64,000 nucleotides of DNA from Methanobacteriota archaeon (GTDB lineage Archaea; Methanobacteriota; Methanobacteria; Methanobacteriales; Methanobacteriaceae): contig CAWBCJ010000001.1 in assembly GCA_963787255.1 (NCBI GenBank), positions 19,540 through 83,539 on the forward strand, given 5' to 3'. Under the pieces are notes generated by a model. The model made no database searches. It was not told where the DNA came from and saw nothing but the letters and a program-made list of their open reading frames with translations. Position numbers and translations under genes: made by a program. Shown one piece after another: positions 9,064-13,841 of this stretch. Numbering within the stretch: position 1 is the stretch's first letter; each line of letters begins with the position of its first letter.

Positions 9064-9654
9064 ATGGTAAAAGCAAAAATTTTATTCGTAAGCGTCCGCA
9101 ATGCTTCCAGGACACAGATGGCAGAAGGTTTCTGTAAAGCTTTCTATGGGGATGAAATCGATGTTTACAGTGCTGGAAGCAATCCACAAGAAATTGACCC
9201 TACAACAATACATGTCATGGATGAGGTAGGAATAGACATTTCCAAACAAACATCAAAGACTTTGCTGGACTTGAAAGACCTTGAAATTGATTATGTTATC
9301 ATGATATGTGGAAATGAATATAATGTCTGCCCAATTTTTGTTGGAGGCATGAAATACTTCAAAAAACCACTCAAGGATATATACCCATTCAAAGGAACAG
9401 AAGCAGGAAAAATTGAGCTTTTAAGAGAAATAAGGGACGAAATAGGTGATTGGGTACAGGACTTTCACTATTATATGAATGGTGAAGCTAAAATATTAAC
9501 AGTTTCAGATTGCTGTGAGTTATTAGGCGCTGATGATGGCTGCTGTGATTTAGAAGGTGTTGGTGGCGGTAGCTGTTGTGATATAGGTGAAACTGATAGT
9601 GAATGCTGTAGTTTTGATTCATCTGATTCTACTCGAAATAAAGACTCTTCTTAA
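9064..9654 (+). CDS. LMW-PTPase-type ArsC paralogue with Ser in place of the nucleophilic Cys and a C-terminal tail carrying four CC pairs
   Basis: The P-loop reads FVSVRNASRTQMAEG (S-X5-R) versus C-X5-R in the neighbouring arsC. It retains CGNEYNVCP. The tail is SDCCELLGADDGCCDLEGVGGGSCCDIGETDSECCSFD. SD GAGGTGAT lies upstream. Confidence 0.75.
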   Translation: MVKAKILFVSVRNASRTQMAEGFCKAFYGDEIDVYSAGSNPQEIDPTTIHVMDEVGIDISKQTSKTLLDLKDLEIDYVIMICGNEYNVCPIFVGGMKYFKKPLKDIYPFKGTEAGKIELLREIRDEIGDWVQDFHYYMNGEAKILTVSDCCELLGADDGCCDLEGVGGGSCCDIGETDSECCSFDSSDSTRNKDSS

Positions 9655-9707
9655 TTTAAAATATTAGGTTTTTTATCGTTAAGCATATAAGCAACTTCTA
9701 CTATTAT

Positions 9708-9739
9708 ATCTATATATCAATATATGTCGATATATAGAT
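9708..9739. promoter_or_regulatory. 11-bp inverted repeat ATCTATATATC-N10-GATATATAGAT upstream of arsR; candidate ArsR operator overlapping a TATA-like sequence
   Basis: Perfect 11/11 arms read directly from the sequence, 64 bp upstream of the arsR start. Confidence 0.45.
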
Positions 9740-9802
9740 TTAACAAAATTAAAAATATAATCTACAAATTAATAGTAGGAAATTTATGGTAGAGGAAGTT
9801 TT

Positions 9803-10159
9803 ATGAAAACTTGTGAAATTTCAGGCGAAGGTAGGCCTAATGAAAATCAAATAAAAAGAATGAAAAAACTTATGGAATCATTACCTAATGATAATCAATT
9901 TGAGGGATATGCAGGTGAACTTAAAGCTTTATCTGATGCTACTCGACTTAAAATCTTATATTTATTATCAGATGGAGAATTATGTGTCTGTGAGATAATA
10001 TGCGCGTTAGATAAGCCACAATCAAGTATATCTCATCATTTAAATATTTTAAAAAATTTGGGTTATATTAAAGGACGTAAAGATGGTGTGTGGATTCATT
10101 ACAGCCTTACAGACCCAAAAATTGCAGAATTGGTTAAAGAATTAATAGAAGTACTCTAA
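9803..10159 (+). CDS. arsR: Arsenic-responsive repressor ArsR
   Basis: Has the canonical ELCVCEI As(III) site followed by the HTH ([22 protein letters not shown]). Immediately precedes arsC. Confidence 0.85.
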
Positions 10160-10173
10160 TTATGGTGATTTTA

Positions 10174-10674
10174 ATGGCAAAAGAAAGAGTTTTATTTATG
10201 TGTATCCATAATGCAGCCAGATCTCAAATGGCAGAAGGCCTATTCAGGCATTTATATAATGATAATTTTGATGTTTACAGTGCTGGAAGCGATCCTCAGG
10301 CAGTCGACCCTTTAGCAATAAAATGTATGGAAGAAATTGGAATTGATATCTCTAATCATAGATCTAAAAGTTTAAAGGAATTTGAGGGCCAGGTATTTGA
10401 TTATGTTATAACTGTTTGTGGAAATCCATATAGTGCATGTCCTTTCTTTGCCGGGGGTAAAAAATACTTCAAACAACCTTTCGAAGATCCCTCAGCGTTT
10501 GACGGGACAGAAGAAGAAAAATTGGAATTATTTAAAAAAATAAGGGATGAATTAAAAGATTGGATAGAAGATTTATACTATTCATATATGATACCCAAAG
10601 ACGGATGCTGCAATTTAGAAGATATTGAAAGATGCGGTTGCGGGCCAATTGATAAAGAATTCTCATGTAAATAA
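10174..10674 (+). CDS. arsC: Arsenate reductase, thioredoxin-coupled LMW-PTPase type, with a short Cys-rich tail
   Basis: Contains FMCIHNAARSQMAEG (C-X5-R), VCGNPYSACP and FEDPS. The tail is KDGCCNLEDIERCGCGPIDKEFSCK. SD GGTGAT lies before the ATG at 10174 (the track ORF starts at 10162). Confidence 0.85.
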   Translation: MAKERVLFMCIHNAARSQMAEGLFRHLYNDNFDVYSAGSDPQAVDPLAIKCMEEIGIDISNHRSKSLKEFEGQVFDYVITVCGNPYSACPFFAGGKKYFKQPFEDPSAFDGTEEEKLELFKKIRDELKDWIEDLYYSYMIPKDGCCNLEDIERCGCGPIDKEFSCK

Positions 10675-10688
10675 TTGGAGTTGAAAAT

Positions 10689-11344: not shown

Positions 11345-11368
11345 TAGTAAAATGAAGTTTTTTGAGGA

Positions 11369-11386
11369 TCGAAATCTACGATTTCA
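11369..11386. repeat. Solitary copy of the GAAATC-N3-GATTTC hairpin motif
   Basis: The sequence is tcGAAATCtacGATTTCa in the 10689-11344 / acr3 intergenic region. Its flank (ttgaggatcgaaatcta) resembles the copy at 17493. Confidence 0.6.
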
Positions 11387-11411
11387 AATGCGTTAAAATA
11401 GAGGGAAAATT

Positions 11412-12527
11412 ATGGGTAAGAGCATACGGATCAAGTTACAAGTCAACTTTGCGGAGTTACACGTCTTAGTTTTCTTGATAGATATTTAACTCTTTGGATT
11501 TTCCTTGCAATGGCTATTGGAGTTTCAATAGGTTATTTTATTCCGGAGTAGAATCATTTATCGGCATGTTTTCAGTTGGAACAACAAGCATACCAATAGC
11601 CATTGGATTAATCTTAATGATGTATCCTCCACTTGCAAAGGTAAAATACGAAGAATTAGGAGATGTATTTAAAAACAAGAAAATTTTAGGGTTAGCTATT
11701 TTCCAAAACTGGGTTATAGCGACCTATTTTAATGTTTATATTAGCAGTAGTCTTCTTAAGTGGATTCCCAGAATTCCTTGACTGGTTTAATCCTAATCGG
11801 AATAGCTCCATGTATTGCAATGGTAATAGTTGGAATGAACTTGCCAAGGAAATACCGAATATGCAGCAGGCCTTGTAGCATTTAACAGCGTATTTCAAGT
11901 ACTATTTTACAGTGTTTATGCATATATCTTCATTACAGTGCTTCCACCTCTACTTGGATTACAGGGAAGCGTTGTAAATTTCAGTATAACCCAAATAGCT
12001 CAGGTGTGTTTATTTATCTTGGAATTCCATTTTTAGCAGGAATTACAAGATTTGTCTTAATAAAATATAAAGGCAAAAATGGTATGAAACTAAATTTATT
12101 CCTAAAATTAGCCCCATTACACTGATAGCGCTACTATTCACCATTGTGGTAATGTTCAGTTTAAAGGGGAACTTTATAATTCAAATACCCCTGGATGTAG
12201 TTCGTATTGCAATTCCACTGCTCATTTACTTCTTGATAATGTTTTTCATAACATTTTACTTAGGTTACAGATGGAGCGGATTACTCTAAAACAACTACAA
12301 TATCTTTTACAGCCGCAAGTAACAATTTTGAGCTTGCAATAGCTGTTGCAGTGGCAGTTTTTGGAATAGGATCTGGAGTTGCATTTGCTACAGTAATCGG
12401 GCCTTTAATAGAAGTCCCTGTGCTTATTGGTTTAGTTAATGTGGCCCTATTATTCCAAAGGAAATATTTTAAGGATAGAACAATTTATAAAACTTATAAA
12501 ATGGAGGAAGAATCATATGGAAGATAA
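11412..12527 (+). pseudogene. acr3: Arsenite efflux permease ACR3, heavily disrupted (about nine frame changes)
   Basis: Stitched by hand over all three frames: [28 protein letters not shown] / [38 protein letters not shown]... / [19 protein letters not shown] / TGLILIGIAPCIAMVIV / WNELAK / [20 protein letters not shown]... / [24 protein letters not shown] / [20 protein letters not shown]... / [31 protein letters not shown]...[16 protein letters not shown]. Confidence 0.85.
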
Positions 12528-12730
12528 TAAATGTGGGATGTGAAGACACCAAACAAGATAAAGAAATTGAAGAAAAGTTAAAAGAAGATACTGGATGCGG
12601 ATGTGGCGAAGAACCCGTACAAGAGCCTGAAGAAGATGCTGGATGTGGCTGCAGTACCAGAATGCAGAAGCATCTGAAGATAGTGGTTGTGGTTGCGGAG
12701 CTATTGATTACCCGGATTTATCACGTGTAG
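12517..12730 (+). other. Acidic leader with four CGC repeats, apparently the N-terminal extension of the following Fe-S protein (needs two frame corrections)
   Basis: An ATG at 12517 follows SD GGAGG. Reading MEDNKCG then [39 protein letters not shown] then [19 protein letters not shown] requires frame changes at the GGG run (~12535) and near 12655. Confidence 0.5.
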
Positions 12731-13422
12731 AAAACCCAGATAAGCCAAAATTTACAGCCGATGAAAATTTTATTAAAGAATTTGAAGATTATGCTAATTC
12801 CTTAGGTATTAATAGTATAGGGTACACTTTACTTACCCCTGAATTGCTGATTAAGGATAAATTCATTCAATATCCATTTACTATTGTTTTAACTATGGAA
12901 ATGGGTAAGGACATCATTGAAACTCCCCCCGGAGAAGATGCCAAAGATCTAAATGATACAGCATATGTAAAATTAGGTATTTTAACAACTAAGCTATCTG
13001 ATTACCTTAGAAAGAATGGTTTTGCTACTGAAATTGCCCATCCAATGGGTGGACTTGTTAATTTCTCTGCACTTGGCCAAGAAGCAGGTTTAGGTTATAT
13101 GGGAGAGAGTGGACTTTTAATAACTCCAGAATTGGGTCCAAGACAGAAAATTTCAGCAATATTTACAAGTATTTCTAACTTACCACTAAATGAAGAGAAT
13201 GAACATTCATGGATACCCGAATACTGCGATAAGTGTGGTAAATGTGTTAAAGCATGTCCTGAAAAAGCACTTGTAGAAAAAGAAACTTGCTGTGGTGGTA
13301 CAGAAATTGAACTTATACAAAAGAATTGTATTGGTTGCAGTCAGGGCTGTACTTACTGTATAGAAGCCTGTCCATTTGAAGAAAAAGGATATGAGCATGT
13401 TAAAAATAAGTTTGCAAAATGA
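12643..13422 (+). CDS. QueG / reductive-dehalogenase-superfamily-like protein with two 4Fe-4S ferredoxin motifs
   Basis: Contains [29 protein letters not shown] followed by [12 protein letters not shown] and [16 protein letters not shown]. This resembles the epoxyqueuosine reductase/RdhA core by recall. Confidence 0.6.
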
Positions 13423-13841
13423 ATGCTAAATTAAAAGAAAAGCAAAATAAAAAGTTTAAAGTTGAATTATGGAATAATTGGGCTAAACAAAACTCTAATC
13501 TATTTACTGACTTAGTTGATGGCGCTACTATAGCAATAGCTATGACAGAAAACAATGAAAAGTTAGTCTTTTTAGAAAAAGGAAATAATGATTTAAACAT
13601 AAGTATAAAACCTCTAAAAGAATTAGAAAGTTCTAATGCAGATTTATTATTCGTTATCGACGAAAAAGACATTGAAGAAATATTAAAAGATGATGATCCT
13701 TTAAAATTCGTAAATTTACTTTCTTCTAGGAGAATAGAAGTTTATGGACTTATGGATCATTTACAACTTATGGATAAAGGATACACGAAGTTTTTAAACA
13801 ATTTAGGCATTAGTATAGGTGGAGGAAACTGCTGCGGTTAA
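13419..13841 (+). CDS. Hypothetical protein, possibly SCP2-like fold, ending in GGGNCCG
   Basis: 140-aa ORF whose start overlaps the previous stop (ATGA). The pattern [48 protein letters not shown] loosely resembles an SCP2 C-terminal half. It carries a terminal CC pair. Confidence 0.4.

Follow-up and report, generated by a model that had tools for sequence, protein, structure and literature searches.

Vicinal cysteines are ligands of As(III) and of methylarsenite, MAs(III), in the ArsD and ArsR proteins of arsenic-resistance (ars) operons (PMC4562236; PMC11868830). The C-terminal tail of ArsD from E. coli R773 holds the pairs Cys112-113 and Cys119-120 (PMC4562236), while ArsR sites bind As(III) through three cysteines and MAs(III) through two (SpArsR), with vicinal cysteines also found in AfArsR and CgArsR (PMC11868830). 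Likewise, a C-terminal vicinal cysteine pair is part of the residue set that defines MerA (PMC12874090). Here we compare with these systems an ars cluster in a 64,000-nt stretch of DNA from a Methanobacteriota archaeon (contig CAWBCJ010000001.1, positions 19,540 to 83,539; hereafter the window), of which the GC content is ~32% and the best protein matches are from Methanobacterium. Three proteins of this cluster, an arsenate reductase (ArsC-C), an ArsC-like protein (ArsC-A) and an Fe-S protein of the reductive-dehalogenase (RDH)/QueG fold, carry terminal segments with repeated paired cysteines. An earlier note on this DNA had taken these segments, on the strength of the same As(III)-vicinal thiol chemistry, as a metalloid capture, hand-off or sequestration layer added onto unrelated folds. 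In our analysis, which rests on sequence comparison and predicted structure, the segments may act as disordered dithiol arms that take up trivalent arsenic species and pass them from enzyme to enzyme, a reading to which we give about an even chance.

Paired-cysteine arms on three ars-cluster proteins

All four cysteine motifs quoted in the earlier note were found in the window. ArsC-A ends in ...SDCCELLGADDGCCDLEGVGGGSCCDIGETDSECCSFDSSDSTRNKDSS, with four CC pairs at 9511-9609 within an acidic tail spanning 9484-9651, and ArsC-C ends in ...KDGCCNLEDIERCGCGPIDKEFSCK, its tail at 10588-10671 following the pattern CC...CGC...C with cysteines at 10606-10668. Four CGC units, read across two frame changes, lie upstream of the catalytic domain of the Fe-S protein, and the last open reading frame (ORF) of the series, at 13419-13841, ends in GGGNCCG with its CC at 13830-13835. 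This last ORF had been counted as a fourth tailed protein; in the nearest relatives (83-93% identity), one protein of 438-454 aa spans both 12517-13422 and 13419-13841. Frameshift-aware alignment located three single-base indels that split the Fe-S gene, namely an extra G at ~12535, a missing base at ~12659 and another at ~13414, the last in a stretch of four A, in which a fifth would put the frame right. Because the 140-aa ORF is fused to the Fe-S protein in relatives, there are three tailed proteins rather than four, one of which, the Fe-S protein, has paired cysteines at both ends, in an N-terminal arm and in a C-terminal CCG. Nor are the tailed genes consecutive, as had been claimed, since arsR, DUF166 and ACR3 genes lie between them.

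Statistically, cysteine makes up 1.0% of the residues in the long ORFs of the window, with 2 CC pairs in 9204 residues, and the probability of finding at least four CC pairs in a 56-aa tail by chance is ~4e-11 to 1e-8; a chance origin of the cysteine motifs is excluded. Tandem Repeats Finder detected no DNA tandem repeat under any of the tails, so that the CC/CGC periodicity in the window is not a product of recent duplication; a duplicated CCG..GESRKKDL unit does occur in the related locus L100. The C-terminal CC, CXC and CCG ends were also considered as Rab-type prenylation motifs and rejected as such, since internal repeats cannot be prenylation sites; Rab geranylgeranyl transferase machinery is not known from methanogens. 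Across ~200 kb of Methanobacterium DNA, ars-cluster proteins were almost the only ones to have at least two paired-cysteine units in a terminal segment, the exceptions being DUF2769 proteins and one small ORF.

The cysteines of the tails are kept far better in close orthologues than the residues that space them. Among 42 aligned ArsC-A family sequences, the tail cysteines are conserved at 95%, the other tail residues at 56% and the core at 84%; in the ArsC-C family, the tail cysteines reach 83% and the other tail residues 56%. Tails with 2-4 CC pairs occur on about 58 cluster representatives of ArsC-A (54-94% identity), every one of the Methanobacterium type, and matches below 50% identity, from bacteria and other archaea, have none. 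The ArsC-C tail has the consensus ..GCC...GCCGPIDKEFSC[KR] in M. formicicum, M. lacus and many metagenome-assembled genomes (MAGs), and up to five CC pairs occur on other Methanobacteriaceae ArsCs (P0299). These data bear on the possibility that the tails are an assembly artefact, through read-through or frameshift, or else neutral low-complexity drift. The window does hold many single-base indels, and the N-terminus of its Fe-S protein is readable only across two frame changes; against this, the same tails recur, in intact frames and with conserved cysteines, in dozens of assemblies that are independent of one another and come from several sources, and both the ArsC-A and the ArsC-C genes are free of indels in the window. 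An artefact or drift is thus hardly credible.

Both ArsC proteins match PF01451 (cutoff 23.2 bits), ArsC-A with 52.6 and ArsC-C with 72.8 bits, and both stay below the NCBIfam equivalog cutoff of TIGR02691 (93.9 and 113 bits, respectively, vs 174.3). Cys82 and Cys89 are kept in both (VCGN..ACP or ICGN..VCP) and are 100% conserved across the ArsC-A family. ArsC-C has an intact CX5R P-loop with Cys10 (MCIHNAARS). ArsC-A, of which residues 6-134 align with B. subtilis ArsC (1JL3), has the P-loop FVSVRNASRT, in which Ser aligns with the nucleophilic Cys10 of 1JL3; Ser10 is 98% conserved in the 42-member subclade with 3-4 CC pairs, and the subclade with 2 CC pairs retains Cys. That the ArsC-A tail has been kept although Cys10 is Ser argues for binding rather than catalysis.

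The ArsC-A gene lies directly 3′ of a highly conserved gene for a 265-aa methyltransferase in all five related loci examined, where the order is a divergent ArsR with an N-terminal CC (CC-ArsR), a small membrane protein, the methyltransferase and the ArsC-like gene. The small membrane gene is common to L001, L081, L082 and L084, and in the L081 module ACR3 and an active ArsC are both absent nearby. ArsC-A travels with the methyltransferase rather than with efflux genes. In the window, the methyltransferase gene is broken by two indels, at ~8621 and ~8638. Its identification as ArsM was rejected, since the orthologue scores 68.9 bits on NF008823 against a cutoff of 263 and has neither ArsM-type cysteine motifs nor vicinal cysteines. 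With its catalytic cysteine lost, ArsC-A could serve the neighbouring methyltransferase as a dedicated carrier or buffer.

The Fe-S protein, its partners and the proposed role of the arms

In 100 relatives of the Fe-S protein, the N-terminal arm has a median length of 65 aa with 7 Cys and 29% acidic residues, and 95% of the arm cysteines lie within two residues of another cysteine, vs 33% expected for random placement. The arms are rich in acidic residues, Gly and Ser; the number and spacing of their units vary (2-14 Cys), and 33 of the 36 long forms have CC(G) at the C-terminus. Conservation is 90% or more in the last GCGCG unit, which lies directly against the catalytic domain. In the AlphaFold model of the relative P0131, the predicted local distance difference test score (pLDDT) is below 30 for residues 1-63 and below 50 for the last six residues, and the arms are predicted to be disordered.

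The core is close to that of corrinoid reductases. Searching the PDB with phmmer returned the reductive dehalogenases PceA (8q4h, 2.8e-15; 4uqu, 1.8e-13) and NpRdhA (3.6e-9) as well as QueG (3.7e-7), and the top 46 Foldseek matches of the AlphaFold model were all PceA, NpRdhA or QueG at probability 1.00, with MMACHC next. The cysteines of two 4Fe-4S motifs (C237, C240, C243 and C247; C270, C273, C277, C280 and C284) are invariant in 74 sequences. The protein stays under the curated family cutoffs (58.5 vs 160.35 bits for TIGR02486 and 36.3 vs 200 for TIGR00276), and its N-terminus is the acidic Cys-rich arm, without a twin-arginine motif. Judged by sequence and modelled fold, it belongs to the RDH/QueG superfamily as a putative B12-type member. 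The C-terminal 140 residues are modelled by AlphaFold2 with a pLDDT of 84.7 (below 50 for the last six residues); this domain has no Pfam match, and its best Foldseek matches, all SCP2, are weak (E 1e-4 to 1e-3, TM score 0.35-0.47).

Only the nearest ~10-15 of 150 family representatives (50% clustering) carry arms, and the distant paralogues L109 and L112 have neither arms nor ars neighbours, yet keep all cluster cysteines; one outcome by which the earlier note would have been refuted, tails equally common on paralogues in non-metal contexts, thus did not come about for these distant paralogues. This distribution is relevant to a general role of the arms in metal or cofactor handling with no specific arsenic link, such as a metallothionein-like buffer for Zn, Ni, Co, Cd or Hg, extra Fe-S ligands, or cobamide or cluster loading. 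Cys-rich acidic tails are common on metalloenzyme accessory proteins, a CbiM-like cobalt/nickel transporter gene lies just downstream, at 14704, and the conserved last GCGCG unit is placed against the catalytic domain as a cofactor ligand might be. We nevertheless consider such a role quite improbable: arms of the same type sit on three unrelated folds whose sole common denominator is the ars cluster, ArsC requires no metal cofactor, and, because the arm-less paralogues keep their cluster cysteines, the arms appear not to be needed for cofactor assembly.

A scan of species-representative genomes gave a single close relative, L001, and the evidence on genomic context therefore comes from metagenome contigs and MAGs, whose loci were retrieved by similarity to the proteins of interest. 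Among 28 metagenome loci, nearly all of those with usable flank encode ArsR, ArsC, ACR3, DUF166 or DGC within a few kb of the RDH-like gene. Methanobacterium sp. ACI-7 has the order arsR, DGC, arsC (166 aa), DUF166, ACR3 and Fe-S; a paralogue of the Fe-S gene from the same sample (L087) has arsR, arsC and a pair of DUF166 genes beside it, and in another genome Fe-S, arsC and arsR follow one another. The RDH-like gene is regularly found in ars neighbourhoods of methanogens. Its usual immediate neighbour in relatives is a DGC-domain (PF08859) gene, e.g. L086:6106-6483; unlike most relatives' loci, the window has no DGC-domain gene. At L087:7442-13736, the RDH-like gene stands beside a gene of the pyridine-nucleotide disulfide-reductase type, and downstream of it, besides the arsR, arsC and DUF166 genes, a DsrE/DsrE/FeS/DsrH-like set follows, a hint of some link to sulfur relay or thiol redox.

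Fusions provide the most telling evidence. ArsM-RDH fusions occur on independent contigs, with L093 (548 aa; L093:7269-8915) scoring 335 bits and L100 (L100:5611-7230) 300 bits against the ArsM cutoff given above, and L097 (L097:450-1835), L099 and the representative P0362 share this architecture. The CxC/CC region forms the inter-domain linker in these fusions. ArsR-RDH fusions are represented by P0369 and P0390, and in L089:7614-9305 and L103:7716-8942 an N-terminal 2x4Fe-4S ferredoxin is fused to the RDH module.

Taken together, the arms would be acidic, thiol-rich segments that a Methanobacteriaceae lineage appended to arsenic-handling proteins. Each CC or CxC unit would provide a dithiol able to ligate trivalent arsenicals; methylarsenite would need two thiols and arsenite three, which two units could supply together. 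In this way the arms could catch the toxic trivalent species at the sites of their formation or use, shield other cellular thiols from them and move them from one active site to the next, and buffering would come as a side effect of capture and hand-off. On ArsC-C, the tail might receive the As(III) just made by the enzyme; on the Fe-S enzyme, the CGC arm and the CCG end might deliver metalloid to a buried redox site or remove it from there. Such capture and hand-off fits the location of arms between ArsM and RDH in the fusions and at the product side of ArsC, as well as their persistence on ArsC-A, which lacks Cys10. The metalloid layer of the earlier note is thus supported in so far as the arms are conserved, linked to ars genes and used as a fusion linker; it extends over three proteins only, and a redox function competes with it.

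Several observations weigh against capture and hand-off. The ArsC tail is missing in 48 of 115 close ArsC homologues and in the ArsC of the syntenic locus L001, and, on these sequences, is not obligatory; the first cysteine of the first pair in the ArsC-C tail is only 43% conserved. An 87-aa ORF near an FmdE gene (L086:18204-18464, minus strand), with no Pfam match, has an acidic CxC tail (...DDSCSCDEDNDPSCNCNEE) outside any ars cluster. In addition, CxC and CC motifs are redox-active too, and NCBIfam lists ArsM fused to AhpD-type thiol-reductase domains, which suggests that the partners of ArsM may be a source of reductant and not substrate carriers, so that the data also fit an electron relay.

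In such a relay, the CxC/CC units would cycle between dithiol and disulfide and replace the bacterial thioredoxin or glutaredoxin, passing electrons from the Fe-S/B12 domain, and ultimately from ferredoxin, to ArsC with its Cys82-Cys89 disulfide and to ArsM, whose catalytic cysteines need re-reduction in each turnover. Low-molecular-weight phosphatase (LMWP)-type ArsC requires an external dithiol reductant, and CXC peptides are redox-active motifs. The two 4Fe-4S motifs and reductase fold of the Fe-S protein, its fusion to ArsM and elsewhere to an N-terminal ferredoxin domain, the catalogued ArsM-AhpD-type fusions, and the disulfide-reductase-type gene that adjoins the Fe-S gene in L087 all speak for this possibility. 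On the other side, ArsC-A retains its four-CC tail despite the loss of the nucleophile that would start a redox cycle, a defined relay fits less well than multivalent binding with units that vary in number and spacing, and no reduction of protein disulfides is known for the RDH/QueG fold; moreover, the ArsR repressors of the same clusters sense with the same vicinal motif (PMC11868830). We regard the relay as the main rival, possible if somewhat unlikely. It is not mutually exclusive with the metalloid-carrier role, as dithiols are able to reduce As(V) species and also to hold the As(III) that is formed.

The Fe-S protein may itself be a hitherto unrecognised arsenic-transforming enzyme of methanogens, its arms delivering thiol-bound arsenicals to a cobamide/Fe-S centre, with ArsC-A as the counterpart carrier for the methyltransferase; we think this unlikely. 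Because it is linked to ars genes and fused to ArsM, the RDH-fold enzyme is nonetheless a plausible candidate for an arsenic reaction. The centre could reduce MAs(V), DMAs(V) (the methylated and dimethylated As(V) species) or As(V) intermediates of ArsM catalysis, or it could cleave C-As bonds reductively, an anaerobic demethylation analogous to dehalogenation. Methanogens have been implicated in both arsenic methylation and demethylation in rice paddies, with no dedicated marker gene used for demethylation, and the demethylation of dimethylated arsenic (DMA) in anoxic soil has been attributed to methanogens including Methanobacterium, which were followed only via mcrA (PMC12478174). Speculatively, the RDH-fold family offers a concrete candidate for methylated As(V) reduction or reductive demethylation in anaerobes, and, if this is true, a gene for arsenic chemistry of anoxic soils that is now tracked by proxy only. 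In any case, a conserved Fe-S enzyme, putatively of the B12 type, is flagged here as a core and unstudied member of methanogen ars clusters, fused to ArsM and ArsR in relatives.

Cluster layout, indels and candidate operators

The genes of the ars cluster lie on the plus strand at 6.9-13.9 kb, with a second ArsR gene divergent from them (Table 1). The divergent ArsR starts with MKNDRCCP, has a CVC site, and faces the module of membrane, methyltransferase and ArsC-like genes; its RCCP and CVC are kept in L001, L081, L082 and L084. The ELCVCEI site that the earlier note had read in the other ArsR is confirmed.

Table 1. Features of the ars cluster and its flanks, in positions of the window
Feature	Position	Strand	Basis or remark
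ArsR/SmtB repressor	6328-6699	-	NCBIfam HTH_metalloreg, 58.7 bits; overlooked in the earlier note
22-bp box TGAATTCGAATTTTTTTGAAAT, copy 1	6821-6842	+	upstream of small membrane gene
Small membrane protein, four transmembrane segments	6927-7244	+	ORF listing
DUF308 membrane protein	7340-7831	+	Pfam match; with the small membrane gene, part of the conserved module ahead of the methyltransferase gene
22-bp box TGAATTCGAATTTTTTTGAAAT, copy 2	8137-8158	+	upstream of methyltransferase gene
Class I S-adenosylmethionine methyltransferase	8237-9036	+	Pfam methyltransferase matches
ArsC-A, ArsC-like LMWPc protein, 196 aa	9064-9654	+	PF01451
AT-rich 40-bp palindrome with TATATCAA repeats	9704-9743		~60 bp upstream of arsR (9803)
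ArsR repressor with ELCVCEI site	9803-10159	+	ORF listing, profile searches
ArsC-C, LMWPc arsenate reductase, 166 aa	10174-10674	+	profile searches
DUF166 protein	10689-11345	+	PF02593; one frame change near 11190
ACR3 arsenite efflux permease	11412-12527	+	frameshift-aware alignment to L086 orthologue
Fe-S protein, predicted RDH/QueG fold	12517-13841	+	split gene; parts are N-terminal arm, core and C-terminal domain
N-terminal acidic arm of Fe-S protein, four CGC units	12517-12699	+	predicted disordered
RDH/QueG-fold domain of Fe-S protein	12700-13418	+	two 4Fe-4S motifs
SCP2-like C-terminal domain of Fe-S protein	13419-13841	+	called as separate 140-aa ORF because of indel at ~13414

Frameshift-aware alignment found ~15 frame-breaking indels in 8.2-13.9 kb, with two in the methyltransferase gene, one in DUF166, nine in ACR3 and three in the Fe-S gene. 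After nine frame corrections, the window ACR3 aligns end to end with its L086 orthologue, which scores 460 bits on TIGR00832. A class II fumarase gene at 25327-~26700 (minus strand) is also split, at ~26535. Because this housekeeping gene is affected too, assembly error is the simpler reading, and ars-specific gene decay, considered because nine of the ~15 indels fall in ACR3, was set aside, although ACR3 itself could still have decayed. The indels are most simply assembly errors, although ACR3 has more than its share.

The two 22-bp boxes are exact copies, for which 0.01 matches are expected by chance, and both lie inside similar upstream regions of ~110 nt with identical ribosome-binding site and start. 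Their sequence suggests that a promoter or operator has been duplicated here, one that probably serves the divergent CC-ArsR. Similarly, the 40-bp palindrome is a candidate ArsR operator.

The Fe-S gene is immediately followed by a 60-aa ORF at 13877-14059 that encodes a Cys-rich zinc ribbon, and the CbiM-like cobalt/nickel uptake gene, identified from its translation, extends over 14704-15644, an intriguing position beside a putative cobamide enzyme. Farther away, small DUF2769 proteins with CxCPxCP-type motifs are encoded by four paralogues in tandem (31271-33739, plus strand), which are unrelated to the ars cluster, and an adjacent pair of tRNA-Gly genes with anticodons TCC and GCC lies at 63157-63307 on the minus strand.

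Comparison with known arsenic and mercury systems

Both window ArsCs share with the LMWP-type ArsC of S. aureus pI258 and B. subtilis the LMWPc fold, Cys82 and Cys89, and ArsC-C also shares the CX5R Cys10; they differ in the tail, which none of the solved ArsCs, all ending at about residue 131-148, covers, and in the Ser10 of ArsC-A. The Fe-S protein resembles RDH, QueG and MMACHC in core sequence, predicted fold and two 4Fe-4S motifs. Unlike RDH, it is without a recognisable twin-arginine translocation signal or RdhB partner and has the cysteine-pair arms, the SCP2-like C-terminal domain, the ars context and the fusions to ArsM and ArsR. Among the repressors, both window ArsRs carry CVC, and the N-terminal CC of the divergent one resembles the Cys15-16 pair of CgArsR; in ArsRs of R773 (type 1), AfArsR (type 2), CgArsR (type 3) and SpArsR, however, the cysteines form single structured sites in a DNA-binding fold, whereas the arms of the window are repeated, predicted to be disordered, and placed on enzymes.

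Two mercury systems offer further parallels. HgcB is a 2x[4Fe-4S] ferredoxin that partners a corrinoid protein, and its C-terminal vicinal cysteine pair has reportedly been implicated in metal delivery. There is no sequence relationship, HgcA being a corrinoid iron-sulfur protein (CFeSP)-type corrinoid protein and not of the RDH fold, and the element is mercury, not arsenic. MerA combines a flexible terminal cysteine pair with a tethered N-terminal thiol-rich module, a layout that the Fe-S protein matches with its N-terminal arm, catalytic domain and C-terminal CC, and the NmerA domain and C-terminal pair of MerA do for Hg what the arms of the Fe-S protein would do for metalloid. The differences are that MerA, which acts on Hg(II), has a flavin-disulfide core and that its NmerA, with GMTCxxC, is folded, while the Fe-S protein stands in an arsenic context and has a B12/Fe-S fold, as predicted, and an arm predicted to be disordered.

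ArsD is comparable as an ars-operon protein whose vicinal cysteine pairs are As(III)/Sb(III) ligands, resembling the GGGNCCG and GCCGP of the window. It is a separate protein with its own fold that passes As(III) to the ArsA ATPase via Cys12-13-18; the window arms are instead on ArsC, an ArsC-like pseudo-enzyme and an RDH-fold enzyme, in archaea that use ACR3. As the earlier note had stated, neither arsD nor arsA was found in the window: the ArsA signatures DTAPTGH and GKGGVGKT do not occur in any of its six frames, and a hidden ArsD was rejected, since tblastn with an R773 ArsD query gave only a weak match (E 0.014), which falls inside a Mur ligase ORF. The suggestion that the tails replace an ArsD-ArsA chaperone is less convincing. 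With an RDH/QueG-fold protein as host, any hand-off would more likely be to or from a methylating or reducing enzyme.

In the literature on Methanobacterium ars genes, on DUF166 and arsenic, on Cys-rich ArsC tails, and on RDH/QueG with ArsM, we found no description of these arms. What is known is the vicinal-thiol chemistry, from ArsD, ArsR, MerA and HgcB; what we found no description of is its use in repeated, predicted disordered arms on an LMWP-type ArsC, on an ArsC paralogue without Cys10 and on an RDH-fold enzyme. Vicinal cysteines are the usual means by which proteins hold trivalent arsenic, and the sensors, chaperones and enzymes described so far have them at fixed positions, whereas here they appear in repeated arms, predicted to be disordered, on three folds, which suggests a different way in which strict anaerobes without ArsD and ArsA might move a toxic thiophilic substrate safely between enzymes.

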